Origin: an uncultured Spirochaetota bacterium
Lineage (GTDB): Bacteria > Spirochaetota > Brevinematia > Brevinematales > JAOACQ01
DNA: 64,000 nt
Reading direction: 5' to 3'
NCBI GenBank assembly: GCA_963835575.1
Contig: CAWIGG010000004.1
Span: 1,000,016-1,064,015 of the forward strand
Under the pieces are notes generated by a model. The model worked only from the letters and a program-made list of their open reading frames with translations, was not told the DNA's origin and did not search any database. Positions within the stretch are counted from its first letter, which is position 1. Every line of letters begins with the position of its first letter. The position numbers and the translations under genes are program-made. This document shows positions 7,452-43,446 of this stretch, in pieces.

Positions 7452-7485
7452 CCGGTAGAGACGTTGCATGCAACGTCTCTACCGG
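7452..7485. repeat. Perfect 34-nt palindrome in the rpoB-rpoC spacer (GAGACG...CGTCTC hairpin family)
   Basis: CCGGTAGAGACGTTGCA|TGCAACGTCTCTACCGG; the two 17-nt halves are exact reverse complements. The core GTAGAGACGT...ACGTCTCTAC is shared with three copies inside the rhs ORF. Confidence 0.9.
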
Positions 7486-11607: not shown

Positions 11608-11678
11608 CACGAAGACACGAAGAACACGAAGAAACACCAACAGGGTAGCACGCGAATTCATGCGAATAGACGCGAATA
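11608..11678. repeat. Two short tandem repeat blocks: (CACGAAGA-like)x3 and (CGCGAAT-like)x3
   Basis: caccacgaagacacgaagaacacgaagaaacacc and gcacgcgaattcatgcgaatagacgcgaataag read directly. Both motifs reappear in frame inside the rhs genes (37066, 37319, about 48.13 kb, 61821). Confidence 0.8.
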
Positions 11679-26154: not shown

Positions 26155-26218
26155 TTCGAAAAAATTGAATTTTTAACGGAATTGAGAACGGGTATTACTA
26201 TAAAGTTTGATTTATGTA

Positions 26219-26416: not shown

Positions 26417-26458
26417 AAGGAAAAATAGGAGAGTAAAATAAAAGGGAAAGGCGGATAT

Positions 26459-26728
26459 GTGTATATCCTGGCAGCAAAATATAATAAATTGCTTTATACC
26501 GGTGTAACAAATGATTTGAAAAGAAGGGTATATGAACATAAATCCGGGATTGAAAAAGGATTCTCAAAAAAATACAATGTTAACAAACTTGTTTACTATG
26601 AAAAGTTTGATAGTATCACTCAAGCCATTAGCAGGGAAAAGCAGATAAAAGGCGGCTCAAGGGAAAAGAAGGTTGAGTTAATAGAGAAGATGAATCCTGG
26701 ATGGAAAGATATGTATGATGAGTTATAA
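26459..26728 (+). CDS. GIY-YIG nuclease family protein (UPF0213/YhbQ-like)
   Basis: 89 aa. VYILAAKYNKLLYTGVTNDLKRRVYEHK matches the GIY...YIG...R..EH signature. GTG start as in the ORF track. Confidence 0.8.
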   Translation: MYILAAKYNKLLYTGVTNDLKRRVYEHKSGIEKGFSKKYNVNKLVYYEKFDSITQAISREKQIKGGSREKKVELIEKMNPGWKDMYDEL

Positions 26729-26743
26729 AGGACTCATTTTGTG

Positions 26744-26825
26744 CAGACAGATTGCTTCGCACTGGTGTCAGCGGCGAAGGAGACAGCATGGCGCTCGCAA
26801 AGACGCGATATGTGCCGAGAAGGCC
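26744..26825 (+). repeat. Nested-palindromic element, copy 2 (5' half only)
   Basis: It begins CAGACAGATTGCTTCGCAC, has the inner arm GCTCGCAAAGACG, and lacks the 3' arms. Confidence 0.7.
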
Positions 26826-26845
26826 GAAAAAGCCACCTTTATGTA

Positions 26846-26995
26846 CAGACAGATTGCTTCGCATGAAGGTCGGCGGCAAAGGAGAAAGCATGATGCTCGC
26901 AATGACACGGTATATGCTGAGACGGAATACCAAAGCCGTCATTGCGAGTGGAGAGATTTCTACTGTGACGAAAGCTGGCGTACGAAGCAATCTGT
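26846..26995 (+). repeat. Nested-palindromic element, copy 3 (150 nt)
   Basis: CAGACAGATTGCTTCGCAT...GCTCGCAATGACA...CGTCATTGCGAG...GCGTACGAAGCAATCTGT. Confidence 0.85.
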
Positions 26996-27020
26996 AAGGA
27001 AAAATAGGAACTTTTATGTA

Positions 27021-27169
27021 TAGACAGATTGCTTCGCGCTGGAATCAGCGGCGGGGGAGACAGCATGACGCTCGCAATGACGCGGCATTCGCAGAAACGG
27101 AGCAAAAAAACGTCATTGCGAGTGGAGGGATTTCTGCTGTGCCGAAAGCTGGCGCACGAAGCAATCTGT
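27021..27169 (+). repeat. Nested-palindromic element, copy 4 (149 nt)
   Basis: TAGACAGATTGCTTCGCGC...GCTCGCAATGACG...CGTCATTGCGAG...GCGCACGAAGCAATCTGT. Confidence 0.85.
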
Positions 27170-27194
27170 CGGCAAAAGAAACAGGTTTTATATG

Positions 27195-27343
27195 CAGACA
27201 GATTGCTTCGCGCTGGAATCAGCGGCGAGGGAGGCAGCAGGGTGCTCGCAATGACGCGGTATCCGCAGAAACGAAGTACAAAAACGTCATTGCGAGGGGA
27301 CGGATATCTTCCGGGCCGATGGCTGCAATCCGAAGCAATCTGT
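27195..27343 (+). repeat. Nested-palindromic element, copy 5 (149 nt)
   Basis: CAGACAGATTGCTTCGCGC...GCTCGCAATGACG...CGTCATTGCGAG...CCGAAGCAATCTGT. Confidence 0.85.
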
Positions 27344-27368
27344 CGGTAAAAGAAACAGGTATTATATG

Positions 27369-27450
27369 CAGACAGATTGCTTCGCGCGGAAGCCGGCGGC
27401 GAGGGATCAAGCATGGCGCTCGTAATGACGGGCGTTGTGCGGAGAAGGGG
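27369..27450 (+). repeat. Nested-palindromic element, copy 6 (5' half only)
   Basis: CAGACAGATTGCTTCGCGC...GCTCGTAATGACG, then it ends. It overlaps the artificial upstream extension of ORF 27377..28495. Confidence 0.7.
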
Positions 27451-27469
27451 TTTGACAGGAGTATATTGT

Positions 27470-28495
27470 ATGAATAAACTGTTTATTTTATTGTTGACGT
27501 TATTATTCATATGCGGTTTTATTTACCCGGGTGAGCTTTTTTTGAAAGGGGACTACTCCTTATACAAGATTTACAGCCTGGAGGGCGCGTCGGGGCCGTT
27601 CCCCCCGTCCAATGCGCCGCTGCTGTTATTTGACGGGAGGAAGGACACGGCCGTGTTTGTCAGCACATACAAATACCCGAAGAGCTTTTGGGTTGTTTTC
27701 GGCAGTCCGGTGGAATTCAGCCGGATAGCCCTTTACGGAGGATTTCAGAAAAGCGGAACGGATTTCTATTATTACGCCCGGCCGAAGGCGGTGAACATAT
27801 ACTCGTATGATCCGAAGAAAAAGGAGAAGCGCGGGGCGCTCATCACGAACATAGTCATGGAAGACACGATGGGGGGGCAGGCCGTGGATTTCGAGGGCGT
27901 CCTGACCGAACCGGGGCTTGTGTTTGAGGCCGCGTCGTACTATCCCAGCACGAACTGCTCCTGCATAAGCAGGCTCGCATTCAGCGAGGTCGAGCTGTAC
28001 TACGGGGATGAAAAATACCGGGTCCTGAATTTTGACGCCGCCTCGAAGGAATACAAAAGGACATGCAGGAATGACAGGCTGAGCGAGATGAAGGGCTTCT
28101 TTTCGGTCCTGAGGAAGGCGGAATTCTTCACCAACGCCGATGCCGTCTTAAGCCTCTGGGGACAGCTGGGAGTAAAGAAAAGCGATATTTACATCTATAA
28201 ACAGGCCGGGATGAACGAAATGGCGATGCTGGAGCTGACGTTCAACGGGGAAGGCGGGTATTCCGGGAAGGTCCTCGCCGGCCGGAACGGCGGCAGGTTC
28301 GTCGAGATCAAAAACAACGGAAGAGCGACGGGGCGTTTTCATCTGGCGGAATCCGTCGAACTGGGAAGCTGGAAGATCGACGAGGACGGCGCCATCTGGG
28401 TCCAGGCCGGCCGCGGGCCGTGGAAGGCCTGCACCGGGACGGGATATTTTGAGGGTACGGACATCGGGGCGTTTGAAAGCGTGACGTACCCGTGA
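27470..28495 (+). CDS. hypothetical secreted protein
   Basis: I place the start at the in-frame ATG 27470 (MNKLFILLLTLLFICGFIYPG, a clear signal peptide). The track start 27377 lies inside repeat copy 6. Function unknown. Confidence 0.65.
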   Translation: MNKLFILLLTLLFICGFIYPGELFLKGDYSLYKIYSLEGASGPFPPSNAPLLLFDGRKDTAVFVSTYKYPKSFWVVFGSPVEFSRIALYGGFQKSGTDFYYYARPKAVNIYSYDPKKKEKRGALITNIVMEDTMGGQAVDFEGVLTEPGLVFEAASYYPSTNCSCISRLAFSEVELYYGDEKYRVLNFDAASKEYKRTCRNDRLSEMKGFFSVLRKAEFFTNADAVLSLWGQLGVKKSDIYIYKQAGMNEMAMLELTFNGEGGYSGKVLAGRNGGRFVEIKNNGRATGRFHLAESVELGSWKIDEDGAIWVQAGRGPWKACTGTGYFEGTDIGAFESVTYP

Positions 28496-28496
28496 G

Positions 28497-28535
28497 ACCA
28501 CCCCCGACCCCTCCTCAATGAGGAGGGGAGTCAGG
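28497..28535 (+). repeat. CCCCTCCT/AGGAGGGG hairpin element, intergenic copy, forward orientation
   Basis: ACCACCCCCGACCCCTCCTcaatgAGGAGGGGAGtcagg, starting 2 nt after the stop of the upstream gene. Confidence 0.85.
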
Positions 28536-28547
28536 CATATTATATAG

Positions 28548-28581
28548 CTCCCCTCCTTTTTAAGGAGGGGGTAGGGGTGGT
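28548..28581 (-). repeat. CCCCTCCT/AGGAGGGG hairpin element, intergenic copy, reverse orientation
   Basis: The reverse complement reads ACCACCCCTACCCCCTCCTtaaaaAGGAGGGGAG. It forms a convergent pair with 28497..28535, directly upstream of the DUF559 gene. Confidence 0.85.
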
Positions 28582-28605
28582 GTATAATATAATCAGGAAA
28601 GTTAT

Positions 28606-29034
28606 ATGAATTTTAAAATTAATAATAGAAAAGAATTAAAAGAAAAGCGCAGATTATTAAGGAATAATTTGACATCAGCAGAAGCAAAACTATGGAAATA
28701 TTTGCAAGGGAAAAAGCTGGATGGACGGAAATTCCGCCGTCAGCATAGTGTTGGTTATTATATTCTGGATTTTTATTGTCCGGGTGAAAAGTTATGTGTG
28801 GAATTAGACGGTATGGGACATTGTAGTAATGAAGGCCATGAATATGATATTGTACGAACAGAATATTTGAATAGTTTAAATATAAAAGTATGCAGAATTG
28901 AAAATAAGAGGGTGTTTGAAAATTTAGATGGAGTTTTAATGGAAATAAGCAGTTATTTCAAAACTACTCATGATTCGTCATCAGGAGAAAATAAGGCAGG
29001 TTGTTGTTTGCCGGAGGAATTGAATGAAGAGTAA
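28606..29034 (+). CDS. endonuclease-domain protein (DUF559, Vsr-like fold)
   Basis: LTSAEAKLWKYLQGKKLDGRKFRRQHSVGYYILDFYCPGEKLCVELDG..H....EYD..R..YL is the DUF559 signature as I know it. The 3' end overlaps the rhs start by 11 nt. Confidence 0.75.
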   Translation: MNFKINNRKELKEKRRLLRNNLTSAEAKLWKYLQGKKLDGRKFRRQHSVGYYILDFYCPGEKLCVELDGMGHCSNEGHEYDIVRTEYLNSLNIKVCRIENKRVFENLDGVLMEISSYFKTTHDSSSGENKAGCCLPEELNEE

Positions 29035-32000: not shown

Positions 32001-35000
32001 ACCACAGCTTCACGGAATACGACGCCGCCGGAAGACGCCTGTCCTCGACGGACCCTATGAGCAATAAAACAATCTATGAATACGGCGCCGGGAACAGCCT
32101 CGCCGGGGTCATTTTCCCCTCGGGAGAGGAAGTCCGCTATTCTTACGACGGCGACGGGAACAAAACGAACGAGGCGTATTACGCGCAGTCCGGCTTTACC
32201 ATCGCGAATAAAAGCATCGTCTACGCGTACGATCCGGAGTACAGGCTGACGAACAAGGCCCTTGTCCAGGACGGCGAGACGTTCAATTATTCCTTCCAGT
32301 ACGACGCCGCCGGCAATATGACCCTCCAGACGGCTGAAAGCGTTCTGCCGGACGGGAATGTCCCTGCCGGCGTCAGCAACAGCTACGCCTACGACGCCAT
32401 CAGCATCCTGACAAATCAGAGCGATTTAATATCAGGGAAAAACATCTCGTATTATTACGATCCGATGGGAAGGCTGACTTTTGAAAACCGGACTGTGACG
32501 AACGGGAGCGGGTACGGATTTTCATTGTCCAATACATACGACATCCTGGGCCGGAACACGGCAAGTTTTAGTTTCACGAACGGGGCCGCCGTCATAATGA
32601 CGTCGAATGACTATCAGGACAATGACCGCGTAACCGTTAAAATCGACCGGTACGGCAATCAGTCCGTGAATTACATGGACTTCCGCAATAACGTGACGAA
32701 CCTGCAGTACTCTGTATTCAATCCGCTGACGGAAGAAAATGAGCTTTATACGCATTCCTATATTTACGACACCCTGGGGAATAAAACAGAGGAAATATAC
32801 CCCGACGGCACGCGCCAGAAATGGCAGTTTGTTTTCGGGAACCGGCTTTTAAAGGAAAGCGGCCGGTATTCGGACGAAAGCGCCGCGGCCTGGAAGACTT
32901 ACTCCCGCGACGCCGCCGGACGCGTGACGGCCGTCAATGATTTTGAGAATAAAACATGGGGAAAATCATACAACAGCCTGGGCCGGCTCAGTTCCGAAAC
33001 CGATCCGGACGGCAGGCAGATTTTTTATATCACGGACCTCTGGGGCAATCCCATGACGGTCCAGCAGGGAAGCCGGCGCAGGGATATTTCCTATAATATC
33101 CTCAACAAGCCCGTTACGGTAAACTACGGGGACGGCGCGGCCGACTCCGCCCTTTATGACGCGATGGGGAATGTTGTTCAGTCTATGCCCGGCGGAGCGT
33201 CCAACCTGCAGACAGTCTCGAGATATGACAACGAGGGGAAAAAGACATATGAAGCCGGCTTCGGCCTCGAAACATACTTCGCCTACGACGCGCAGGGAAA
33301 TTTGATATATAAAAAGGCGGCCACGGCCCCCTCCAACCACCCCCAGCCCCTCCTTAATAAGGAGGGGAGTAGAACTTGGACTTATGCGTATGACGCCTGC
33401 GGCAGGATTACGGAAGAGCATTTACCGGACGGAACGTTCATCAGCCATGACTATGCCGTTTCGAACGGCCTCCTGATTGAGACCGTCTCCGGGCCGAAAA
33501 GGCATAATACATCCGCCGCGGACACGACGGTCAACACATACGACCAGATGGACCGCCTGATACGCAGCCAGGTCTGCGACGATGGACTGGAAGCGGCCTG
33601 CGATATCGGCTTCTTCGCCGGGAAGGGGCTTATCTCCGGCAAGGTGTTCGACAGGGCCGGCCTTCCCGTCAAAGAGGTGCGTCCGGGAAATAAGATAAAG
33701 AATTATAAATACTCGCCGGAAGGCCGGGTGACGAACGAGGAAAACGAGGCCGGCGAAGTGAAAAGTTCCGTTTATGATAAAAACGGTAATCTGACATATA
33801 TGACGGATTTCGACGGGAACAGCTTCAGCAACACCTATTATAATTCCGGTAAATTAATGAAATCATTAGAGCCGGGCAATGCCGTCACTTCTTATTATTA
33901 CGACGCGTACGGGAACATGAATAAGAAAGTACTGCCGGACGGCAGTACATGGCTTTTCGAGACCGACGCGAGGGGAAGGACCGTAAAGGAAACAAACCCC
34001 TTCGGAGGCACCGCGGCGTTCGAGTACGACGCGCTGGGCAGAAAAATGGCCGAAACGGGCCCCGGCGGAAGTTATACCGCCTATGATTATGACGGGAACG
34101 GAATACCGACGGGCATAGAGACGCAGGGCAACGACGGGGAAAACGCAGTCAAGATTTCAGCTGCTGTGGACGGGTTCGGGGAGACGAATAGGGTGGAATA
34201 CCCAACCACCCCCAGCCCCTCCTCAGGCAAGGAGGGGAGTCAGGGTCTGATTGTAACATATCAATATGATAATATGGGGCGGGTGACGAATAAAACAACC
34301 ACCCCCAACCCCCTCCTTAATAAGGAGGGGAGCAGGACCACACGCTATAAATATAGAGAAGATGGAAGGCTGAAAAGGACGGATAATCCGGACGGGACGG
34401 CCGAAATGTACGCCTACAGCGCGGCGTGGCTGCTGACGAACAGGACCGTCCTGGGGGATACTAATAAGGGCGATTTGCCGCCGAAAAGGGTGACGGCGTA
34501 TTATTACGGCGGGTACGGGGACGGAGACGTACGGCCGTACGTCTCTACGGGAGGGTTCGGCGATGTTGAATGCGCTGTTGATTACCGCGGAATTGTCACG
34601 GCGTCGTATTACGATAAGGCCGGGCGGCTGACGAACCGCTCCGAAACGGCGGGGACGGAACCGAGGAATACCATAACGATTTACGGGCTTACTAATATAA
34701 ATAATCTCTTTTATCGGACAATGGAAACATGGAAAGAGGAGACGCACAGCCGTGCGTCTCTACAGATGGAATGGTCAAAAACCGTGACTGATTTCAGGGG
34801 GAATGTCCTGAAGGTTTACCGGATGGAAAAGGGGCAGGAACTGCTGACGGCCGATAACACATACAACGCGGCGGGAAAATTGGTTTCTGAGGTCCGGCAG
34901 GAGGACCTGGGCAGTCCCGAGACAAGATACGAATACGGCGCGAACGGCGCGCTTTCGAAAAAAACGGAGCCCTCGGGACTGATCACCGAATACAGTTACG

Positions 35001-38000
35001 ACAGCGCGGGAAGGATAACGGAAACGAGGGAGTATCCCGCGGACAATTATTCACAGGCGAGGAAAACGGATTATCAATATCACCAGAACGGAAGGCTGAA
35101 GCGCAAAGTATTGTATGATTTTTCCGGCCCGGCGCTGGAGGACACGTCCTATTCCTACGACTTCCGGGGGAACGTCATTAATAAAACGGACAACCTAAGG
35201 AATACCGCTTTTATAACTTTTTATAACGCCTACGGCGAGAAAACAGAGGAAAGCACACTCTGGAACGGAGAGTCATCGGACAGGCATTACAGCTATGACG
35301 CCGCCGGAAGACTTTATCAGACCACCGGCGAACTGGGCAGTGTGACGACTTATACATACGGGGATTTCGGGCAGACGGCGACGAAGGGGATATCGTACAG
35401 AGGAGACGTACAGCCGTACGTCTCTACGAGTTATTTTTATGATTCACGGGGAAATGTAATTACAGAAACCGTATATGGGATGACCCCCTCCGGCTCCCCC
35501 TCAGGCAAGGGGGAGAGCCGGCTATTGTCTTATACCACGAGCTATCAGTACGACGGGTGGGGGAACCGCACAAACACCGTATATCCCGACGGGAGTTTTG
35601 AAACATCCGAATATGACGGGTCCGGGCAGAAGATAAACGAGACCGACAGGTACGGATACCGGACGGCGTATGAATACGATGAGAACGGCAGGGAGACAAA
35701 ACGGACATCCGGCACGCCCAACGGGAACCTGATAACTGAGACAGTTTACGATAATTCCGGGCGGAAGATTTCAGAGACAAGCCATGGGGAAACGGGACCC
35801 TCAAGGACCGCGCAGTATCAATATGACAGTTCGGGAAGGCTGATCAATCAGCAGATTGGGGACGTGTCATCCTCGACAGGGTACGACGCCTTCGGGAATA
35901 AAACATGGACAACCACCCCCGGCCCCTCCTTAAATAAGGAGGGGAGCAGTACCTGGTATTACCAGTACGACGCGGCGGGAAGGACGACCGTCAGCATCGA
36001 CGGAGAGGGGAACAGGACGGAGACGAGCTACGGATTTGACGGCGATTGGAGGCTGACGGTAACTACCACCCCCAACCCCTCCTCAGGCAAGGAGGGGAGC
36101 CGGAAAATTATTTATGACGGGTTCGGGAATAAGATTGAGGATGTTGACGCGAACGGGAACAGCGAATATTACCAATATAACGCGGCCGGCAAGCCGACGG
36201 TATATACCGACAGGAACAGCAATCAGACTGTATATATTTATGACTCTCTGGGAAGACAGACCGCGACTGTCGACGCGAACGGGAGCGTATTGTCGAACGT
36301 GTACGACAGCTTTAATAATATAATTGAGGTCGTTGACAAGGAAGGGCGCCATCTTTACAGGGAATTCGACTGGGCGGGAAGGATGATATGGACGAAAGAC
36401 GCCTTAGGTAATGAGGCGAGATACGAATACACAACCACCCCCAAACCCCTCCTTGGCAAGGAGGGGAATCCGCTTGGGTATGAGGTTGAGGTCTTCACAG
36501 ACGCGGAGGGGAACAAAGCAACCACATATAAATACGGCAAGATGACGCTGGCTGTTCAGGACGCGCTAGGCAATATCACGAGCTATCAATACAACGCCTT
36601 CGGCGAATTAACGGCGACGGTCGACCCGAAGGGGAATACGACAAGTCTTACATATGACTTGCGGGGCAACAAAACAGGTGAAACAACGGCTTTAGGCTTC
36701 AGCACGACATATCAATATGACAATAACGGCAACGTGATAAATGAGATCAACGGCGAGGGCTGGATAAAAACGACATACAACAGGAACAACCAGCCAGTGA
36801 GAAAAGATTATAGCGATGGAAACACAAAAAACTTCCTCTACGATTCTTTGGGAAGGTTGACAAGAGCGCGGGACAATTTCAGCGACTATTCATATCTTTA
36901 TGATAATAATGGAAGCTTGACTAACAGGTATGATAATATCAATAAAGAGACGCTGGCGTATGAGTATGACGGGAACGGGAACCGCGTTAAAATGACTGCT
37001 CAAGATAAGATTGTAAATTATGATTATGACGCTTTAAATCAAATTAAGAAAGAAACGGTATTAACCACGAAGATCACGAAGGACACGAAGGAAGAAATTA
37101 ATGTGGCCTCCGGCTTCATAACGAACCTTTCAATTGATTACAGTTATTCTCCTATGGGGAGGGTCACGAATAAGACATATTCTTCGGGGCTGGTCGTCAA
37201 TTATGAATATGACCCTATTTACAGGCTGATGAAAATAAACAACACGACCAATGGATTGTTTTTATCATCGTTCGGGTATACATACGACAAAGTGGGGAAC
37301 AGGACAAAGGAAACGGCCCGCGAATCCACGCGAATAGGCACGAATGGGGATGGTTCGGCCTCCGGCGGGGAACGGGTGTCGGCGTTTCTTTATGATAAGG
37401 CGTACAGGCTTGTCAAGGCCGATTATAGTGAAGGTAAGTTCGAGGAATTCGAATACGACAATTCAGGTAACCGGCTAAGGAAGACTTCAAATTTAGACGG
37501 CTCTAATACCGTTACGACCGGCTATGTCATCGACAACGACAACAGACTCCTCTGCGAACAGAAGCCTTCCGGCAATATCAGCTTTATTTATGACCGCGCT
37601 GGACGGATTATCAAGAAAGTAGAAGGGGATAAAGTAGAACGCTATCAGTACAACCAGCGCGACTTGATGACGAAGTACACCGTCGAGCAGAACGGCAGTA
37701 TCACTTCCGTAAGTGAATACACCTACGACATCAACAACCTCCGCACCGTTAAGAAAGAAACCCCTGAGACGCCGGGAAGTGTCGGAGATAACACAACACG
37801 CTTTACCTATGACGGAGACAATATATTATATGAAGGCCCGTCTTTTTATTTGAATAACATCTTTATCAATAGTTACGAAGCGGAAATACAGCCGCTGAGG
37901 ACGGCGGTCTATGTAAAGGACGCGCTGGGAAGCGTGAGGGGCGAAATCTACGACAACCCGCTCCCGCCTGTAGAGTCTGGCGGCTCTGGAATCGCGCTGA

Positions 38001-39832
38001 AAGAATTTAATTATACCGCCTTCGGGGAAATGCTGGCTATAGGCGATCAGATTGCAATAGACAACGATGCTAAAAAAGGCATTTCTTATACTGGACATTA
38101 TTTTGATAAAGACACAAAATTATACTATGCCCGCGCCCGCTACTACGATCCGGGCATAGGGCGGTTTATTACAAGTGATCCGATTCAAGACCCATCGAAG
38201 AGATATGCTCCCGCCGGGCTGAACAGGTATGTTTACGGAGATAACTCGCCTCTGCGTTATATCGACCCTGAAGGCCAATTCGGGTTGGACGATCTCATAG
38301 CAGGAATCGTGGGCGGAATTATCGGAGCGATCAGTAATGTTATTGCTGATATAGCCAGCGGGGACTATAAGGACATTCTTCTTGATTCCATACTCGGCAG
38401 TACGGCTGGATTTATAAACGGCGTGGTGGAGCATTATGGAATACCGATGTATATATCGTTCAACACAAGGGGATTCGGCGCCGGAGTGGGCTACAACTTA
38501 GGCGGGGTTGTCAGCGTCGGCGCGGGAATTCATTCAGACTGGAGCGGACAGAATTACGGTTTCAGCGTAAACGCCGGACTTGGCGGTGTTGATAAGTACA
38601 AAGGCCTTAGTCTGGGATTCTCGGCGGGCATTGACTACGGCCCTGAAGGCCAGAAGAGCTACTTCGGGTTTAACGCCGGCGCAGGATCGATTAATTTCGG
38701 CGCTAACTGGAATTATGTTAACGGGCAATACGCCGGTTTCGGGGTTAACGGCGGTTTTGGCGGGGACATCGGTAAAGGTTATTCACTCGGACTTAACCTT
38801 GGAGCGAACTTTGACGCGAAGGGCAATTACTCAGGCGGCAGCGCAGGAATAAATATCGGGTATAATGAGAGGATTAAAGATTCAAAGGATTCAATGCAGT
38901 ATAACGGAAGTCTGGGCATAAATTTCAGCGCGGACGGAAAAGTAACTCCTTACGCTAATTTTACCGCGACGAGGTGTATTAATATTCAGAAGAATGCTGA
39001 AACGGGGAAGAAAGCCGGGAATAAGACGGCTAACGAAATTGAAATGGAGCGGCAGGGCTTGCAGCGGGATATGGCCGAGAGAATGAAAACAACTGTAATG
39101 AGTATGGAAGCCGGGATGGAAAGACCGGAAACGCCGGGAATGATGGTAATCGGCCAGAGTGTGAACGATGCCAATGACAACCAGACTGCGGGCGATGCGA
39201 TGACTGCCGGGAACGAGAAAGTGGCGGCGGCGAAAGCGGCGTATAATCAGGAAAAACAGCAGGCTATTCAGAACGGGACGCTGGGGCAATTCTATAAACG
39301 GGAAATGCTTGAAAATCTTACTTTTAACCAGGATACAGGATATTGGGTAACAACAATAGACGGGCAGACAATAAATATCGGCAGAACAAATATTGATTTA
39401 GATTTCAGCACAACCGCAACCTATACTTTAGATCAAAGTAAGGAACATATCTACACGGTTGTTTCAAATATGACTGATGATGCAATTATTGGGTTTGCCA
39501 ACTTCACAAACCATAATGAAGGCTTCGTTGTTACCAGCATGTGGCGAAATACTAATGATCCTCATGGTCATGGGACTGCTTTTGATATGGTATTCGGAAA
39601 TAACACACCTGTTTATGCGGCTGAAGGTGGTATAGTAACTACTGCTGGGAATTATGGAGGAGCCGGAATTATGATTACAATTAGCGGGACAGATAATTTA
39701 AAATACACTTATATGCACAACAATCAGCTATACTATAGTGTAAATGCAAATGTTGATGCTGGGAATAAAATTTCTTTATCGGGTGGTACGCCAAATTATG
39801 CGCCACATTTACATTTCCAAATTGGTAGATAA
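29024..39832 (+). CDS. RHS/YD-repeat polymorphic toxin with C-terminal M23-family peptidase tip
   Basis: 3602 aa. N-terminal signal peptide and a PG-binding-like segment (ENGFYNKETEAALEQF). Dozens of YD repeats (Y.YD..GN...). RHS core end YYARARYYDPGIGRFITSDP...GLNRYVYGDNSPLRYIDPEG at about 38.1-38.27 kb. Then a Gly-zipper/Gly-rich segment and a tip ending ...GHGTAFD...YMHNN...APHLHFQIGR (M23 metallopeptidase-like). Confidence 0.9.
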   Translation: MKSKSLAAALLLTCFLVLVYAGTKIALQINGKKVDIAAQNDSRNPYLYNTRLRDIQAKLNKVLSFNLTNYAPIEENGFYNKETEAALEQFREMYYKKYSLQRYYAFSAEDAVEPSSVEGLLDREIPAAADFAREYQEGMKLKNGDPAKYYGNSAWDEVLRIEKGMDGDTVDPVTGELSKTIPLYQTPAGNDHLMPIQLTARYGSQYSGNCGLGDNWYLTESYSLWFSYEKNEMIVQDGSGISQKFNFTNGGFSRDTNNNTDGGLFLNVMLDGALGTEGSTICVITARGETMIFECADNKGQDSVSNVIESISTNSLEVYGYCIVEDLRIYEVTNYTRDFMWSLKTNISVSNYGPTIKMGLYADSSNALDMTMTNSAYTNFSDWLNNGHQTVTGQKMICDKEEFKNKVWKLSDTSEGGWSVSYYAAPLATNAIEFVTNWIWGGAPLSNCTQSDTNFDMRVKVNTNIVYTQGTSYSFRRQPMGQAGIYAGYVLTNSMNRFGSVKSYSYDGFQKLLSINSYSPGGTEIDGVSITYSPAGEKGFIKVITTGLASSANGVITFSYTGNQPDHQLLDTAVVMMDGKADAHRMAYHSELLFGPGSPDGVKLSNSIFSNYSALTNSFTYITNEISFITSNIGELVQQNYVYFWEMYTNITETITHNGINTTTNISSSLFYDDKYYNNSKDYYDLLVQFMESQLPDLISNISSLTDQISNYNSGDLFPRLALLDSHIDSAGPWQEYRYGSFDTNMFGVTNRESAFRTTIVRKQGAECRLDYSGGYTEYHNFSGNTFKFHYDINQTNYDERHVDRIVYPDNSTVSFGYDKKGNITAVTNEINNAYSYGYDDFGNVTNKSMPGRNWYYEYNSVIGRYLGRPTKIVQPDHTVYTMAYDENGEMTNQTLKANDADQGKTLVQVFFSPLSANGFVKTNRDMYGSETVYTYDGSHSPVSVKNPDGGVTAYINDSFGKPLIENRSNLVTNICVYDSRGNIVEQGIAGLNHSFTEYDAAGRRLSSTDPMSNKTIYEYGAGNSLAGVIFPSGEEVRYSYDGDGNKTNEAYYAQSGFTIANKSIVYAYDPEYRLTNKALVQDGETFNYSFQYDAAGNMTLQTAESVLPDGNVPAGVSNSYAYDAISILTNQSDLISGKNISYYYDPMGRLTFENRTVTNGSGYGFSLSNTYDILGRNTASFSFTNGAAVIMTSNDYQDNDRVTVKIDRYGNQSVNYMDFRNNVTNLQYSVFNPLTEENELYTHSYIYDTLGNKTEEIYPDGTRQKWQFVFGNRLLKESGRYSDESAAAWKTYSRDAAGRVTAVNDFENKTWGKSYNSLGRLSSETDPDGRQIFYITDLWGNPMTVQQGSRRRDISYNILNKPVTVNYGDGAADSALYDAMGNVVQSMPGGASNLQTVSRYDNEGKKTYEAGFGLETYFAYDAQGNLIYKKAATAPSNHPQPLLNKEGSRTWTYAYDACGRITEEHLPDGTFISHDYAVSNGLLIETVSGPKRHNTSAADTTVNTYDQMDRLIRSQVCDDGLEAACDIGFFAGKGLISGKVFDRAGLPVKEVRPGNKIKNYKYSPEGRVTNEENEAGEVKSSVYDKNGNLTYMTDFDGNSFSNTYYNSGKLMKSLEPGNAVTSYYYDAYGNMNKKVLPDGSTWLFETDARGRTVKETNPFGGTAAFEYDALGRKMAETGPGGSYTAYDYDGNGIPTGIETQGNDGENAVKISAAVDGFGETNRVEYPTTPSPSSGKEGSQGLIVTYQYDNMGRVTNKTTTPNPLLNKEGSRTTRYKYREDGRLKRTDNPDGTAEMYAYSAAWLLTNRTVLGDTNKGDLPPKRVTAYYYGGYGDGDVRPYVSTGGFGDVECAVDYRGIVTASYYDKAGRLTNRSETAGTEPRNTITIYGLTNINNLFYRTMETWKEETHSRASLQMEWSKTVTDFRGNVLKVYRMEKGQELLTADNTYNAAGKLVSEVRQEDLGSPETRYEYGANGALSKKTEPSGLITEYSYDSAGRITETREYPADNYSQARKTDYQYHQNGRLKRKVLYDFSGPALEDTSYSYDFRGNVINKTDNLRNTAFITFYNAYGEKTEESTLWNGESSDRHYSYDAAGRLYQTTGELGSVTTYTYGDFGQTATKGISYRGDVQPYVSTSYFYDSRGNVITETVYGMTPSGSPSGKGESRLLSYTTSYQYDGWGNRTNTVYPDGSFETSEYDGSGQKINETDRYGYRTAYEYDENGRETKRTSGTPNGNLITETVYDNSGRKISETSHGETGPSRTAQYQYDSSGRLINQQIGDVSSSTGYDAFGNKTWTTTPGPSLNKEGSSTWYYQYDAAGRTTVSIDGEGNRTETSYGFDGDWRLTVTTTPNPSSGKEGSRKIIYDGFGNKIEDVDANGNSEYYQYNAAGKPTVYTDRNSNQTVYIYDSLGRQTATVDANGSVLSNVYDSFNNIIEVVDKEGRHLYREFDWAGRMIWTKDALGNEARYEYTTTPKPLLGKEGNPLGYEVEVFTDAEGNKATTYKYGKMTLAVQDALGNITSYQYNAFGELTATVDPKGNTTSLTYDLRGNKTGETTALGFSTTYQYDNNGNVINEINGEGWIKTTYNRNNQPVRKDYSDGNTKNFLYDSLGRLTRARDNFSDYSYLYDNNGSLTNRYDNINKETLAYEYDGNGNRVKMTAQDKIVNYDYDALNQIKKETVLTTKITKDTKEEINVASGFITNLSIDYSYSPMGRVTNKTYSSGLVVNYEYDPIYRLMKINNTTNGLFLSSFGYTYDKVGNRTKETARESTRIGTNGDGSASGGERVSAFLYDKAYRLVKADYSEGKFEEFEYDNSGNRLRKTSNLDGSNTVTTGYVIDNDNRLLCEQKPSGNISFIYDRAGRIIKKVEGDKVERYQYNQRDLMTKYTVEQNGSITSVSEYTYDINNLRTVKKETPETPGSVGDNTTRFTYDGDNILYEGPSFYLNNIFINSYEAEIQPLRTAVYVKDALGSVRGEIYDNPLPPVESGGSGIALKEFNYTAFGEMLAIGDQIAIDNDAKKGISYTGHYFDKDTKLYYARARYYDPGIGRFITSDPIQDPSKRYAPAGLNRYVYGDNSPLRYIDPEGQFGLDDLIAGIVGGIIGAISNVIADIASGDYKDILLDSILGSTAGFINGVVEHYGIPMYISFNTRGFGAGVGYNLGGVVSVGAGIHSDWSGQNYGFSVNAGLGGVDKYKGLSLGFSAGIDYGPEGQKSYFGFNAGAGSINFGANWNYVNGQYAGFGVNGGFGGDIGKGYSLGLNLGANFDAKGNYSGGSAGINIGYNERIKDSKDSMQYNGSLGINFSADGKVTPYANFTATRCINIQKNAETGKKAGNKTANEIEMERQGLQRDMAERMKTTVMSMEAGMERPETPGMMVIGQSVNDANDNQTAGDAMTAGNEKVAAAKAAYNQEKQQAIQNGTLGQFYKREMLENLTFNQDTGYWVTTIDGQTINIGRTNIDLDFSTTATYTLDQSKEHIYTVVSNMTDDAIIGFANFTNHNEGFVVTSMWRNTNDPHGHGTAFDMVFGNNTPVYAAEGGIVTTAGNYGGAGIMITISGTDNLKYTYMHNNQLYYSVNANVDAGNKISLSGGTPNYAPHLHFQIGR
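33336..33369 (+). repeat. CCCCTCCT/AGGAGGGG hairpin element in frame inside rhs (encodes NHPQPLLNKEGS)
   Basis: ACCACCCCCAGCCCCTCCTtaataAGGAGGGGAG. Confidence 0.85.
34205..34239 (+). repeat. CCCCTCCT/AGGAGGGG hairpin element in frame inside rhs (TTPSPSSGKEGS)
   Basis: ACCACCCCCAGCCCCTCCTcaggcaAGGAGGGGAG. Confidence 0.85.
34298..34332 (+). repeat. CCCCTCCT/AGGAGGGG hairpin element in frame inside rhs (TTPNPLLNKEGS)
   Basis: ACCACCCCCAACCCCCTCCTtaataAGGAGGGGAG. Confidence 0.85.
34524..34548 (+). repeat. GAGACG...CGTCTC hairpin element in frame inside rhs (GDVRPYVST)
   Basis: GAGACGTAC-ggcc-GTACGTCTC-TAC. Confidence 0.85.
34739..34763 (+). repeat. GAGACG...CGTCTC hairpin element in frame inside rhs (ETHSRASLQ)
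   Basis: GAGACGCAC-agcc-GTGCGTCTC-TAC. The stem carries a compensatory T/C : A/G change relative to the other copies. Confidence 0.85.
35403..35427 (+). repeat. GAGACG...CGTCTC hairpin element in frame inside rhs (GDVQPYVST)
   Basis: GAGACGTAC-agcc-GTACGTCTC-TAC. Confidence 0.85.
35482..35515 (+). repeat. Variant C-rich/G-rich hairpin in frame inside rhs (TPSGSPSGKGES)
   Basis: GACCCCCTCCGGCTCCCCCtcaggcaaGGGGGAG. Same loop as the 34205 and 36065 copies, with an altered stem. Confidence 0.7.
35912..35946 (+). repeat. CCCCTCCT/AGGAGGGG hairpin element in frame inside rhs (TTPGPSLNKEGS)
   Basis: ACCACCCCCGGCCCCTCCTtaaataAGGAGGGGAG. Confidence 0.85.
36065..36099 (+). repeat. CCCCTCCT/AGGAGGGG hairpin element in frame inside rhs (TTPNPSSGKEGS)
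   Basis: ACCACCCCCAACCCCTCCTcaggcaAGGAGGGGAG. Confidence 0.85.
36434..36468 (+). repeat. CCCCTCCT/AGGAGGGG hairpin element in frame inside rhs (TTPKPLLGKEGN)
   Basis: ACCACCCCCAAACCCCTCCTtggcaAGGAGGGGAA. Confidence 0.85.
37066..37092 (+). repeat. (CACGAAG-like)x3 tandem repeat in frame inside rhs (TKITKDTKE)
   Basis: CACGAAGATCACGAAGGACACGAAGGA; same motif as the intergenic block at 11608. Confidence 0.8.
37319..37345 (+). repeat. (CGCGAAT-like)x3 repeat in frame inside rhs (ARESTRIGTN)
   Basis: CGCGAATCCACGCGAATAGGCACGAAT; same motif as the intergenic block at 11651. It is conserved at the equivalent position of both tip cassettes (about 48.13 kb minus strand; 61821 plus strand). Confidence 0.8.
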
Positions 39833-39848
39833 TGGGAGGATACCTTTA

Positions 39849-40613
39849 ATGAAACACTTTCTAATTTTTTGCCTGATTTTTATTTTTGCCGAATTGTACA
39901 GCCAAGTCAAGTTAAATGTGGTAGCAAAGACAGGTTTGTTTTTGAGAGATAAAGCAGATAAAAATGGAAAGATATTAACTCAAGTTCCCTATGGTTCTTC
40001 TGTGGATGTAATCAAAAAAGACAGAAAATTTACATTTGATAATATTAATGGTAATTGGGTATTTGTTGAGTACAACAAATTAAAAGGTTATATTTTTAGT
40101 GGTTATTTGTCTGACTTGCCTGCACCAATCATAAATAGTAGCATTAAGGACTATTTTATAAAGCAGATAAAAGTTGAAAAAGTTATTAGCTCCAACTTTA
40201 TTATTTACAATGAAACCAATCATTATACGAATGCCAGTTATGTAACCGTGCTTTTTGGATATGATATTGTCCAAGATTATGTGGATGCGGGAATTAAAGA
40301 AGGAGAATACGAAGCGGGATTGTATTATAGCACATATTTGTTCAAAAAAAGAAAAATAGAGGAAGTTTTTGTTGTCTTAAAAGCTCTGGGGTTTTGTAAA
40401 TACATTGACTATTTTCCAATAAGTACAATTAATTTTCCTCAAAAAGATAAAGAAAGGTATTTAATTGATAAAATTCAAGTGAAGCGTAAAAGTAATAGGA
40501 TTGAAGAAATCAAGGTAATTGATTATCCCATGTCAGGTCATAGAGTTATCCAAACTTTAAAGGTTACAAACAATAATGATGTGGTGTATATTTGGGACGA
40601 GTATGGAGATTAG
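39849..40613 (+). CDS. putative cognate immunity protein, secreted, SH3-like domain
   Basis: I start it at ATG 39849 (MKHFLIFCLIFIFAELYSQ, a signal peptide) with GGGAGGA 8 nt upstream. The ORF-track extension to 39744 overlaps the toxin. The segment GLFLRDKADKNGKILTQVPYGSSVDVI...NWVFVEYNKLKGYIFSGYL resembles bacterial SH3. Its position right after the toxin tip supports the call. Confidence 0.7.
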   Translation: MKHFLIFCLIFIFAELYSQVKLNVVAKTGLFLRDKADKNGKILTQVPYGSSVDVIKKDRKFTFDNINGNWVFVEYNKLKGYIFSGYLSDLPAPIINSSIKDYFIKQIKVEKVISSNFIIYNETNHYTNASYVTVLFGYDIVQDYVDAGIKEGEYEAGLYYSTYLFKKRKIEEVFVVLKALGFCKYIDYFPISTINFPQKDKERYLIDKIQVKRKSNRIEEIKVIDYPMSGHRVIQTLKVTNNNDVVYIWDEYGD

Positions 40614-41165: not shown

Positions 41166-42092
41166 ATGAAAAAAAGAAACATGAAATACCTTAGACCCAG
41201 TATCAATATCATTACCTCAATGCTGACTCTATTATCCATGGTTTACTTACTTTTTGTAGGATTTGGAATTAAAATAATTGAAAACGACACAGAAGGGATA
41301 ATTGCTATCGTTGCAGGTTTTATAGTTTCTATCAGTTTCATTTACTGGCTATTTTTTGTTTTAATTCTTAATTTAATTCAATTTACAATCAACATTTTTA
41401 ATTCTAAAAGTATATCAGAAGAAACTGCTAATATTCATGACGCCGCTCTTAATGGAGATTTAGAAACTGTTAATAGATTAATAAAAAATGGAACTGCTGT
41501 AAATGCCACAAACGATAAAGGGTTTACTCCTCTTACTATGGCAGCCTTTAATGGACATATTAATATAGTAAAAGCCTTGTTAAATGCAAAAGCCGACATT
41601 AATGCAAAAAATAAGAAAGGGGTAACTTCACTAATGGGTGCAACTTATAAAGGCCATTCTTATATTGCGTGGACTTTACTATCAGCCGGAGCTGATGTGA
41701 ACAAAAAGTCTGAAGTGGGAACAACTGCTTTAATAGGATCGGCAGATAAAGGAAATTATGAAATAATGAGGATTCTTCTAAATGCCGGAGCAGACCCAAA
41801 TGAGAGCGATAATAACGGTCTTACAGCTTTGATGATTGCAGGTTCATACGGATATACCGATATTGTAAAAATATTAATCGAAAAAGGAGCTAATGTAAAT
41901 GCCTATGATGCTGGTGGAGCAACTCCTTTGATGGGGCCATCAGCAAATGGACATGCTGAAATAGTTAAACTTCTCTTGGAAGCAGGAGCTAAAAATGACT
42001 ACAAAACTATCGACGGATTAACTGCGCTACAACTTGCAAAAAGTAACAAACACTTTGATATAGTTGATCTCCTGAAAAATTCTAGGAGTTAA
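41166..42092 (+). CDS. membrane-anchored ankyrin-repeat protein
   Basis: Two to three N-terminal hydrophobic helices, then about 6-7 ANK repeats (e.g. GFTPLTMAAFNGHINIVKALLNAKADINAKN, GLTALMIAGSYGYTDIVKILIEKGANVNA). Confidence 0.85.
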   Translation: MKKRNMKYLRPSINIITSMLTLLSMVYLLFVGFGIKIIENDTEGIIAIVAGFIVSISFIYWLFFVLILNLIQFTINIFNSKSISEETANIHDAALNGDLETVNRLIKNGTAVNATNDKGFTPLTMAAFNGHINIVKALLNAKADINAKNKKGVTSLMGATYKGHSYIAWTLLSAGADVNKKSEVGTTALIGSADKGNYEIMRILLNAGADPNESDNNGLTALMIAGSYGYTDIVKILIEKGANVNAYDAGGATPLMGPSANGHAEIVKLLLEAGAKNDYKTIDGLTALQLAKSNKHFDIVDLLKNSRS

Positions 42093-42188
42093 TTCTTTGG
42101 AGTTTAAATATTCAATGTTAAATAACTTTACATGGCAATAACAATCTTTTTAAAACCATTTGTTTCTATGGGGAATATTAGCGAAATT

Positions 42189-42938
42189 TTATTTAATAAA
42201 CACAGCAAAGGGAAAATAGTAATTTCTTCTTCCTTTGATTAATTCTGGTGTTTGTCTTCCAGATGTTTCTGATATAACTTTTCTATTAGCTAAATCAAAA
42301 GCATCAACTATATCAATAACTCTATAACCATCTTGTGAAAGATCATAATTATCAATATTCATTTCTGAGATTAAGCTACTTGAGAAATATCCGCCTTTTG
42401 AATCTTCCCCTGCACTTTCGTCAATGCGGCATGAATTGATTTGAATTAATCCAGTTTCACAATGTTCAAGATATTTTTCAAAATAATAGCGGGAATAAGT
42501 TGAATCCTGAGACCTACGTTCGCTAAATGACAATTTATATGAATCTTGGATGATTTCCTTAAGTTTTGTTCTACAGCAATCCAATATTAACAATTGTTTT
42601 TTTGCTCCTTTAGTTAATTCTTTATAATCAATATTTTCATTTTGATTTAATTCTAGCATTGTTGTATTTCTTGATTCCGAAAACCAACCATGTCCACAAA
42701 AAACTATAAACGCATAATCTGCTGTAGATTGTATATTAGCTATTGTGCTGATGACTTGATTTTGAGATGGTTTTACTTTTGCAATAATTTCACTAGAATT
42801 CCAAGCGCCACCTATTGGGGATTTTAAAAAAGATTCATAATTTTTAATATCAGCAAAAACACCCGGACAATAATTTTTTGCATTTTCTTCACCAGGATTG
42901 CCAATTAGTAAAGCATATTTTTTAATACTCATTATCAA
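42189..42938 (-). CDS. caspase-like (peptidase C14 / CHAT-type fold) protease
   Basis: 249 aa. ALLIGN at the N-terminus, catalytic His context FIVFCGHGWF and catalytic Cys context QLLILDCCRTK, with spacing as in caspase/metacaspase p20 domains. Last gene of a three-gene minus-strand operon. Confidence 0.7.
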   Translation of the reverse strand: MIMSIKKYALLIGNPGEENAKNYCPGVFADIKNYESFLKSPIGGAWNSSEIIAKVKPSQNQVISTIANIQSTADYAFIVFCGHGWFSESRNTTMLELNQNENIDYKELTKGAKKQLLILDCCRTKLKEIIQDSYKLSFSERRSQDSTYSRYYFEKYLEHCETGLIQINSCRIDESAGEDSKGGYFSSSLISEMNIDNYDLSQDGYRVIDIVDAFDLANRKVISETSGRQTPELIKGRRNYYFPFAVFIK

Positions 42939-42951
42939 CCTCCAACTAATT

Positions 42952-43398
42952 TTATATTATAAAGGAGTTTATATATTTTTGAAATTTTAAATCATAACCA
43001 ACTATATTTTCAATTATTCCGCTTGGATTCTTCCACCAATTTTTATGTCTTATTGCCATTTCTTGAACACTTAAAAACGATTCTATTTTACTTTTACTTC
43101 CTTTAAAATATTTCCATAGATTTTCCAACAAATTAAATACAATGCAACAATAATTATCATAACGCATATATCTTTCTTCTTTTGGATTATTATTATCAAT
43201 CCATTTGCTACAAAAATCATTATCTTCTAAATATGGATATTCAATTGCGATCTGATTTATTTGCAAAATTTGGTTTTCAAGCCACAATTCATATTGCTTG
43301 GCAATTGATTTTCTTACTGTGTAATAAGAAACAATCCAAGCTATAATTGAAGAAACAACAGCAGATATTAAAGTAGATATCGGATTCCAGTCAATCAT
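42952..43398 (-). CDS. hypothetical protein with a single N-terminal TM helix
   Basis: 148 aa. ISTLISAVVSSIIAWIVSYY is a TM anchor. The remainder is Trp/Tyr-rich and soluble. The gap to the caspase-like gene is 13 nt. Confidence 0.6.
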   Translation of the reverse strand: MIDWNPISTLISAVVSSIIAWIVSYYTVRKSIAKQYELWLENQILQINQIAIEYPYLEDNDFCSKWIDNNNPKEERYMRYDNYCCIVFNLLENLWKYFKGSKSKIESFLSVQEMAIRHKNWWKNPSGIIENIVGYDLKFQKYINSFII

Positions 43399-43446
43399 AA
43401 TTTCCTTCCTATCTTTTAAATTAGTTTTTGCCGCAAATCATGATAA

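Follow-up and report, generated by a model that had tools for sequence, protein, structure and literature searches.

Intergenic-Type Repeats within the Turns of a Large RHS Gene from an Uncultured Brevinematia Bacterium

Introduction

How a single gene can take up a dozen repeats of an intergenic type and still be read through, and why all copies of one repeat family within it point the same way, are the questions raised by a 64,000-nt stretch of contig CAWIGG010000004.1 (GCA_963835575.1; Spirochaetota, Brevinematia), which is referred to here as the window and to which all coordinates are relative. This stretch contains a 3602-aa RHS/YD-repeat open reading frame (ORF) whose part between 33.3 and 37.4 kb carries 12 elements, namely seven copies of a tagged hairpin (family A), three copies of another palindrome (family B), and two blocks of heptamer repeats (family C). 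The best explanation as a whole, to which a probability of about 0.6 is assigned, is that these elements are solo copies of intergenic-type repeats that were copied into the turns of the RHS shell, where they form in-frame loops, and that integration was coupled to the site in the case of family A.

An initial annotation, made from the letters and ORFs of the window, had described these elements and regarded their shared frame as the outcome of a survival filter, with stop codons closing the other frames. Its description of the elements holds well. The seven family A copies and a convergent intergenic pair at 28497-28581 were all confirmed on the sequence, as were the family B copies at 34524, 34739, and 35403 (which have two different readings), and the CACGAAG and CGCGAAT blocks at 37066 and 37319 do match an intergenic block at 11608. 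A palindrome at 7452, described there as a relative of family B, shares the outer arms of that family (GTAGAGACG/CGTCTCTAC) and has a different centre.

The RHS Gene and Its Shell Fold

The ORF that hosts the elements runs uninterrupted across 10.8 kb, with RHS repeats flanking each element on both sides. Its translation matches the Pfam families RHS_repeat (E = 5.6e-109) and Peptidase_M23 (E = 1.3e-14), shows YD repeats with a period of 20-22 aa (canonical 21), and contains a sequence similar to the RHS-associated core (...YYDPGIGRFITSDP...YVYGDNSPLRYIDPEG), C-terminal to which the peptidase domain is located. YD repeats, together with a core and the position of a variable C-terminal toxin domain, place the product among the RHS/YD shell proteins. 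RHS loci are recognised hot spots of diversification.

An AlphaFold2 (AF2) model of the residues encoded by 34031-36523 consists of a run of beta-hairpins with a mean predicted local distance difference test (pLDDT) score of 71.8. In a Foldseek search, its top matches were the type VI secretion system Rhs effector RhsA (7q97, E = 1.4e-28), teneurins, and the TcB/TcC (BC) shells of Tc toxins. All nine modelled elements are found between strands, and pLDDT dips locally at the inserts and is about 80-90 in most of the surrounding repeats. The model thus shows the elements in turns or loops between the beta-strands of a predicted YD shell, where they would extend the loops by 6-16 residues while the ORF stays open.

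The Embedded Repeat Families

Family A is built of a tag, AACCACCCC, which is followed after 2-4 nt by a hairpin, CCCCTCCT-loop-AGGAGGGG. A longer form can be written as ACCACCCCC, 2-3 nt, CCCCTCCT-loop-AGGAGGGG-AG, and solo copies measure 33-36 nt. Exact stems of 8-9 bp are present in six of the seven copies in the RHS gene (0.05 matches to the stem pattern would be expected from shuffled sequences), and the remaining copy, at 35482/35483, is degenerate. Loops are varied, with four kinds among the six exact RHS copies and six kinds among eight window copies; TTAATAA is common to 33336 and 34298, and TCAGGCA to 34205 and 36065. Outside the RHS gene, the window has two intergenic copies and none in other genes. 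These two form a doublet of 85 nt with 35-nt inverted arms, which folds at -58.6 kcal/mol (z = -6.6). A search of the window against Rfam gave nothing at the gathering threshold except two tRNAs, and the doublet came up only under microRNA-type matches at chance level.

Family B has the consensus GGAGACG-YAC-RGCC-GTR-CGTCTC-TAC, and the pattern GAGACG-N10-CGTCTC was found three times as compared with 0.00 expected from shuffled sequences. Its 3′ end reads CTAC on the plus strand (GTAG in minus-strand orientation), with no complement at the 5′ side. This is the build of GTAG-tagged repetitive extragenic palindromic (REP) sequences, i.e., an imperfect palindrome of 20-40 bp with GTAG at one end only. 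The palindrome between rpoB and rpoC is the only intergenic relative in the window. Similar GTAGAGAC...GTCTCTAC palindromes occur at four unrelated genome loci (L075, L078, L081, and L118), and their centres differ but are still palindromic. No gene similar to that of the REP-associated tyrosine transposase (RAYT) turned up among the window ORFs scanned, and a literature search on the family B arm sequences returned unrelated subjects only, as judged by titles.

Family C consists of triple heptamers. The intergenic block that combines its two types has CACGAAG x3 at 11608 and CGCGAAT-type x3 at 11651. The same layout with another heptamer (TTTCAC, 7-mer, A, 7-mer, AA, 7-mer), again including bipartite blocks, was found at locus L059, and this layout assigns family C to a class of triple-heptamer elements. 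The three C2 copies associated with RHS sequences (Table 1) were considered as independent insertions and rejected as such, since the RHS fragments are paralogous and their homology begins about 45 nt upstream, which points to one event.

The density of these structures is confined to one part of the gene. In 33301-37400 there are 11 perfect hairpins (stem, 8 bp or more), as against none in some 24 kb of coding sequence elsewhere (rpoB, rpoC, a 3175-aa ORF, and the 5′ and 3′ parts of the RHS gene). The hairpins of the elements fold at about -16 kcal/mol (range, -15.5 to -20.9).

Table 1. Embedded elements, their relatives, and the associated genes in the window.
Feature	Coordinates	Strand	Reading and remarks
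RHS/YD-repeat ORF, 3602 aa	29024..39832	+	C-terminal M23 peptidase domain; carries all in-frame elements
Family A	33336..33371	+	Read N-H-P-Q-P-L-L-N-K-E-G-S; 1 nt shorter; YD unit of 35 aa vs. canonical 21
Family A, TTPSPSSGKEGS	34205..34240	+	Full 12-aa addition within a native Y-P-Q-G turn; gap of 9+3 aa in P0001; 12 window-only columns in the 20-homolog alignment; loop in AF2 model
Family A, TTPNPLLNKEGS	34298..34333	+	Eight window-specific residues; 9-aa gap in P0001; loop in AF2 model
Family A, degenerate, TPSGSPSGKGES	35483..35518	+	Stem CTCCCCCT/AGGGGGAG; 16 columns with occupancy <=1/20; loop in AF2 model
Family A, TTPGPSLNKEGS	35912..35947	+	Only GPSLNK (18 nt, hairpin core) extra; loop in AF2 model
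Family A, TTPNPSSGKEGS	36065..36100	+	Tag at canonical unit positions 11-13; net length change small or ambiguous; modelled loop
Family A, TTPKPLLGKEGN	36434..36469	+	P0001 has T-T-T-P-N-G-S here; loop in AF2 model
Family A doublet, intergenic	28497..28581	+ (28497-28532) and - (28546-28581)	Tags outward
Family B	34524..34548	GTAG tag on -	Read G-D-V-R-P-Y-V-S-T; 10-aa gap in P0001; low column occupancy
Family B	34739..34763	GTAG tag on -	Other frame, E-T-H-S-R-A-S-L-Q; 7-aa gap in P0001
Family B	35403..35427	GTAG tag on -	Read G-D-V-Q-P-Y-V-S-T; no net gap in P0001; 5 low-occupancy columns (20 homologs)
Family B relative, 34-nt perfect palindrome, CCGGTAGAGACGTTGCATGCAACGTCTCTACCGG	7452..7485		rpoB-rpoC spacer; folds at -28.4 kcal/mol
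Family C1, CACGAAG x3, 9-nt period, with tail	37066..37110	+	Read T-K-I-T-K-D-T-K-E-E-I-N-V-A-S-G; 15-aa gap in P0001
Family C2, CGCGAAT-CCA-CGCGAAT-AGG-CACGAAT	37319..37345	+	Read R-E-S-T-R-I-G-T-N; other palindromic insert here in P0001
Bipartite family C block, intergenic (CACGAAG x3, 19 nt, CGCGAAT-type x3)	11608..11677	+	Directly 3′ of rpoC stop codon
Paralogous C2	48121..48147	-	Start of orphan RHS C-terminal fragment
Paralogous C2	61821..61847	+	Start of second, decayed RHS fragment
DUF559 ORF (Vsr-like PD-(D/E)XK endonuclease), 142 aa	28606..29034	+	Overlaps RHS start codon by 11 nt

A further perfect hairpin, GTACTGCC-GGAC-GGCAGTAC, at 33929-33948, coincides with codons for a native L-P-D-G-S-T turn and may be either a chance occurrence or a fifth element.

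Additions to the RHS Protein

Among 5.8 billion proteins searched with the 1433-aa middle part of the RHS product, the closest relative is a colinear protein with 39% identity (P0001), which shares its sequencing study with the congeners described below. In its alignment with the window protein, clear gaps are present at A-34205 (12 aa), A-34298 (9), B-34524 (10), B-34739 (7), and C1-37066 (15), and partial gaps at 35482, 35912, and 36434, whereas the length is unchanged on balance at A-36065, B-35403, and C2-37319. In an alignment of 21 sequences, seven of the nine elements fall in columns that are filled by 0-4 of the 20 homologs, the median occupancy being 19. YD units with a family A copy are 26-37 aa long as compared with the canonical 20-22 aa, and the encoded motifs P[LS][LS].KEG, DV.PYVS, ET..[RG][AT]SLQ, and TK.TK.TK do not occur in the best 120 RHS homologs (246,733 aa). 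The initial annotation had named homolog alignment and placement on a shell model as checks of the insertion idea, and homologs bearing the same peptides as the observation that would speak against it. The gaps in P0001 and in the 20 homologs, the position of all nine modelled elements in beta-hairpin loops, and the lack of such peptides in the 120 homologs bear the idea out. Taken together, these results support the view that the segments are additions to the RHS protein and copies of intergenic-type repeat families. With homolog gaps and modelled loops, they have the features of in-frame insertions at permissive sites, of the kind known from Rickettsia palindromic elements (RPEs).

The same process appears to have affected a relative. 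The P0001 gene (contig L001) has its own 45-nt palindrome, GGPSVQSPGGDHSGTG, twice in frame and with sharp borders (3284-3331 and 3398-3445). Its two copies are identical at 43 of 45 positions and have unrelated flanks, and one of them is found exactly at the C2 site of the window. As another repeat occupies the same site, in-frame insertion recurs in the RHS family, and the C2 site may be regarded as a permissive hot spot.

Movement of such elements can also be seen outside the RHS gene. The RpoB of the window is 92% identical to those of two metagenome-assembled genomes and 80-82% identical to proteins labelled "Brevinematia bacterium". Two congeners (RpoB 92% identical) have an rpoB-rpoC spacer of 22-24 nt without the 34-nt palindrome. 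In a third congener (L136, ~9920-9945), the loop of the rplL-rpoB leader hairpin holds a triple heptamer (GTCGACA/GTCGACA/GCCGACA), which is a clean C-type insertion. To judge from these genomes, the differences at the spacer and the leader hairpin show directly that such elements are mobile in the lineage. The leader hairpin itself (3853-3878 in the window) is kept in all four genomes with compensatory changes. Its stem match at 3855-3876 was rejected as a family A member on account of this conservation in all congeners, and a stem-like match at 307-327 was rejected because it is located in a tRNA gene.

Orientation, Frame, and Repeat Phase of Family A

The initial claim that all family A copies have the same orientation and reading frame stands for the orientation (plus strand in 7/7) and in part for the frame. 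K-E-G (AAG-GAG-GGG) is the reading of the 3′ arm in every copy. For the tag, five of the six canonical copies give T-T-P (ACC-ACC-CCC); the copy at 33336 reads N-H-P-Q, its tag being in another frame because this copy is 1 nt shorter, and the degenerate copy at 35482 reads M-T-P. As to the stop codons that were thought to close the other frames, they are indeed present in one forward and one reverse frame of the TTAATAA-loop copies, and only one of the three forward frames is concerned. Each copy has three to six stop-free frames out of six, and the K-E-G agreement would arise by a stop filter alone with a chance of ~1/36000, so that such a filter is not a sufficient cause of the shared frame.

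A different regularity emerges when the copies are placed on the YD repeat. Family A copies occupy the second turn of the YD unit, which has the consensus T-D-(P/A)-x-G-(N/R/S). In the frame used, the tag gives T-T-P and the tail GAG-GGG-AGY gives E-G-S. At 35912, 19 homologs have T-D-P opposite TTP and x-G-N opposite EGS. The tag is found at unit positions 11-13 both there and at 36065, and the copy at 34298 is shifted by one residue. At 36434, the window has T-T-T-P-K-[PLLGKE]-G-N in place of the T-T-T-P-N-G-S of P0001. Other readings of family A would be RRG-rich, GWGW-rich, or poly-Pro. If an element replaces the turn codons that it resembles, or lands within them, its orientation, frame, and repeat phase would be fixed together. 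At the level of sequence, the superposition of T-T-P...(E)-G-S on the T-D-P-x-G-(N/R/S) turn shows that integration site and frame are coupled for family A.

These data fit site-coupled integration or replacement at YD-turn codons combined with selection on the peptide. The cause of the coupling might be mechanistic (microhomology, short-tract conversion, or break repair at a near-cognate tag), or it might be selective, in that the reading used recreates a hydrophilic turn rich in Pro and Gly. Recent duplication of whole YD units was considered as a source of the copies and rejected, since flank similarity is 0.33 for family A copies and 0.29-0.32 at control turns.

Family A in Other Genomes and the DUF559 Gene

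Family A is not restricted to the window. A scan of one genome per species with the pattern ACCACCCC-N2-5-CCCTCCT-N4-9-AGGAGGGG found at least 120 loci, where a few at most would be expected by chance according to our own estimate. The loci listed belong to Bacteroidota, Acidobacteriota, Patescibacteria, Thiomargarita, Geobacter, Nitrospinota, Dehalococcoidia, a cyanobacterium, Planctomycetota, sphingomonads, and others. Of the copies in these loci, 120 of 154 lie outside any long open frame, and their orientation relative to the neighbouring genes is unbiased (41 vs. 48). Among the loci listed, the only protein family that recurs beside family A is DUF559, which was found at five loci, each time within 150 nt.

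A DUF559 gene is also present in the window, between the family A doublet and the RHS gene. Its product matches PF04480 (E = 4.2e-30; 104 bits vs. a cut-off of 20.6) and the structure 3HRL in the PDB (E = 2.5e-20), and a candidate catalytic motif, D...E-x-D, was read by eye in ...ILDFYC...CVELDG.... DUF559 is a very common domain of unknown role. For a survey from the side of this gene, 13 relatives from a metagenome scan with the window DUF559 gene were pooled with the genome loci. The sequence GGGGTGGT (at most one mismatch) was found within 200 nt upstream in 12 of 17 loci, and ACCACCCC downstream in 10-12 of 14, against a background of 0.10. The usual layout is that of a cassette, hairpin-GTTAG-GGGGTGGTT, DUF559 gene, AACCACCCC-TAAC-hairpin. 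DUF559 genes with flanking repeats of this kind were noted in many phyla, the loci being 28546-29034 of the window and L003, L013, L034, L047, L099, and L122-L133. An inverted dispersed repeat is thus located on both sides of the gene in unrelated genomes, as in REPtrons. The window cassette has the upstream end only: the right-hand doublet copy (28546-28581), 24 nt 5′ of the ATG, is a canonical left end, an additional copy faces outward, and there is no downstream end. Doublets with tags inward and no gene between them occur at L012, L025, L056, and L061, and could be empty cassette sites. In a literature search, no description of a link between DUF559 and such repeats was found.

Some genomes have dense arrays of family A (L044, L028, L113, L115 from a Thiomargarita sp., and L120). 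In Thiomargarita, seven copies are present in 1.4 kb, nearly all with a TTGGTAA loop, unlike the varied loops of the window.

Genomic Context

In three congeners (L135-L137), rpoC is followed by rpsL-rpsG-fusA-tuf. The window has instead an island of more than 52 kb (from 11597 to beyond 64000), which starts with the family C block at 11608 and holds a toxin-antitoxin pair, a DDE transposase, a 3175-aa ORF with S8 protease and Ig domains, the DUF559 gene, and the RHS locus. Several other repeats and modules were observed in it. The toxin-antitoxin pair (RelE and a helix-turn-helix protein) is flanked by GCTGATAGCTGTTGGCTATTAGCGGTTAGCAGG-type repeats (12504-13501). Just upstream of the family A doublet, 26212-27456 consists of tandem and dispersed 174-nt repeats (95-nt core x6) with overlapping ORFs on both strands, and a 372-aa ORF at 27377-28495 has no Pfam match.

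Downstream of the RHS locus, a low-GC patch (0.27-0.36; 41166-44256) separates it from an inverted orphan copy and encodes an ankyrin-repeat protein (41166-42092) and a caspase-like protein (42189-42938). The orphan RHS module (44848-48174, minus strand) comprises an Rhs-associated core at 47080-48174, which matches TIGR03696 (Rhs_assc_core), an M23-type peptidase protein at 45629-47083, and a 289-aa ORF at 44848-45717. The latter has the same length as an ORF with an SH3 domain (39744-40613) downstream of the main RHS gene and, from this equal length, is presumably its copy. Two near-identical inverted modules, at 48433-53723 (minus strand) and 56245-61535 (plus strand), each encode a DnaG-like primase (960 aa) and two XerC/D-like tyrosine recombinases (438 and 325 aa), and each adjoins an RHS C-terminal fragment that starts at a CGCGAAT block. 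A system that inverts or shuffles RHS C-termini is one possibility. Between these modules, four 58-nt hairpin units (GGCATGGGTTTTGAC...AAACCCATGCC) are found at 54285-55592.

Discussion

The explanation preferred here, that intergenic-type solo repeats were copied into RHS turns, would proceed as follows. Family A would have integrated at turn codons or replaced them, possibly by microhomology, gene conversion, or repair of a nuclease break templated on another family A copy, and purifying selection would then have removed readings that were Arg-rich, rich in Trp and Gly, or interrupted by stops. The inserts most likely persist as tolerated passengers and not as adaptations. Several points weigh against this explanation. 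Homologs give no clear net gap at 36065, 36434, 35403, and 37319. With the nearest homolog at 39% identity, the insertion borders, and the distinction between a 36-nt addition and an 18-nt replacement, were derived from repeat geometry. Inspection by eye showed no target-site duplication next to the solo copies or the doublet, and the elements and their reading frame are as given by the assembly. Family B is read in two frames, and the turn-overlay argument is thus limited to family A, whose clustering in the RHS gene could in part stem from intragenic conversion.

The survival filter of the initial annotation belongs to an explanation in which elements transpose anywhere and only the copies that preserve the ORF are left, in one frame. 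The stops in TTAATAA-loop copies and the intact ORF over 10.8 kb agree with it, any insertion into a functional gene must face purifying selection, and REP-decorated ORFs elsewhere have been explained in this manner (PMC3733652). It is nevertheless unlikely, as the open frames of the copies leave the K-E-G agreement to chance, the seven copies are alike in orientation while those of other genomes show no bias, and all family A copies are at the same phase of the YD repeat. Random insertion would moreover leave more intergenic than coding copies, contrary to what is seen in the window. About as unlikely is that one or two founding insertions were spread within the gene by short-tract gene conversion or unequal recombination among YD units. 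The common phase of the tag at 35912 and 36065 (and, one residue off, at 34298), the two pairs of copies with common loops, and the three sites where part of the element stands in for native turn residues rather than adding a full 12 aa would all suit this account. It is at odds with flanks whose similarity does not exceed that at control turns, with positions that vary within the unit (+0, +1, +3, +4, and ~+7 residues), and with the number of loop kinds among the six exact copies, and conversion of family A would leave unexplained the three other repeat families in the same 4 kb.

Selection for the inserts themselves, either because they diversify loops at the surface or lumen of the shell or because messenger RNA hairpins with Shine-Dalgarno-like AGGAGG pace translation and folding, has a still smaller chance of being correct. 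The hairpins are stable, all modelled elements are at loops, and RHS loci are prone to diversification; the earlier remark that the 5′ arm resembles the 16S tail and that the 3′ arm is strongly Shine-Dalgarno-like also holds, as a statement on sequence. The inserts are, however, conserved in no homolog, and in many phyla these elements occur as ordinary repeats between genes. In addition, as P0001 has a different repeat at the same site, the site would seem to be permissive and the sequence itself dispensable. Least probable of all is that native RHS sequence resembles the repeats by chance, or that the gene is an assembly artefact or a pseudogene. The sequence does come from an assembly, and contig L001 of the homolog has frameshifts typical of noisy long-read assemblies. 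Such an origin would hardly produce 33-36-nt segments exactly identical to elements in at least 120 loci of other phyla, peptides with 0 occurrences in 120 homologs, or an open frame of 3602 codons in which each element lies between RHS repeats.

The adjacent DUF559 protein is the most likely candidate for the mobilising or break-making enzyme of family A. A wider and more tentative proposal is that DUF559 nucleases are dedicated enzymes of an undescribed, cross-phylum group of tagged-hairpin repeats and have repeatedly written such hairpins into RHS turns. After a nick made by the enzyme at the AACCACCCC tag, the hairpin would spread through repair with another copy as template, and in this genome the YD-turn codons ACN-GAY-CCN would act as near-cognate sites, which would yield the same orientation and frame. 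Since homing endonucleases with a Vsr fold are known (PMC3239194), spread by nuclease and repair is plausible for DUF559 by analogy. A point against a role of DUF559 is that 115 of the 120 listed family A loci have no DUF559 gene within 8 kb.

With twelve elements from four families in a regular repeat protein, all of them in loops, the RHS gene may be viewed as a natural experiment that shows which sites of a beta-hairpin shell accept insertions. The coupling of frame and site in family A points to copying guided by homology or a nuclease and not to blind transposition, and bears on how REP-like elements without a known transposase move. DUF559 gains a testable genomic partner, a 33-36-nt tagged hairpin that ranges from Bacteroidota to Patescibacteria, Acidobacteriota, Thiomargarita, and cyanobacteria. 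If the link between nuclease and repeat is functional, it would define a new class of minimal selfish element, and many spurious "hypothetical proteins" of metagenomes would be accounted for.

Comparison with Known Systems

Repeats of the REP or RPE type that are translated within genes are already known. What is new here is the density of the elements, the presence of four families in one gene, the coupling of the frame to the YD turn, and the link of family A to a DUF559 cassette across phyla. RPEs are short palindromic repeats that occur both between genes and in frame within functional ORFs, where their peptides are located at permissive surface positions (PMC3733652). The analogy with RPEs that had been drawn initially is apt with regard to behaviour; no relation in sequence is claimed, and RPEs are confined to Rickettsia. 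An RPE-decorated gene usually has one or two inserts, whereas the RHS gene has 12 from four families in 4 kb. RPE-1 elements are also much longer than the elements of families A-C.

GTAG-tagged REPs have also been found inside ORFs in several species, where the residues that they add are probably located in linkers or loops (PMC3733652). Family B has their defining build (Di Nocera et al. 2013, PMC3733652), a stem-loop of 22-25 nt with GTAG at one end. In-frame GTAG/CGTC REPs have been documented in other bacteria, mainly in genes of DNA replication and repair and with a few inserts per ORF at most, and neither an RHS host, nor turn-specific placement, nor a mixture of four families was reported for them (PMC3733652). 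The described GTAG/CGTC REPs are species-specific or occur in some species only (PMC3733652), whereas the sequence of family A is common to many phyla. In its organisation, the family A cassette resembles REPtrons and REPINs, with a small gene between inverted tagged hairpins, solo copies, and inverted doublets. The REPtron gene encodes an HUH-Y1 RAYT transposase and its tag is GTAG, whereas the gene flanked by family A encodes a DUF559 nuclease without a match to an HUH/Y1 family and the tag is AACCACCCC; the cassette is therefore an analogue of REPtrons and not a member.

Other comparisons concern the nuclease and the doublet. I-Bth0305I, a Vsr-like (EDxHD) homing endonuclease, cuts a specific target so that its gene spreads via repair (PMC3239194). 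It resides in a group I intron of a phage recA, whereas DUF559 is free-standing, flanked by hairpins, and a predicted nuclease. The mechanism proposed for DUF559 and family A is of this kind. With regard to MITEs (miniature transposable elements with inverted repeats), the 85-nt doublet has the inverted arms but no target-site duplication seen by eye, and solo copies are only 33-36 nt long. Enterobacterial MITE-like intergenic repeats have likewise been found inside ORFs, to which they contribute peptide sequence (Delihas, PMC2759123, PMC2229807). These elements are 103-168 bp long, belong to another lineage, and do not target the turns of a repeat protein, as family A appears to do in the RHS gene.

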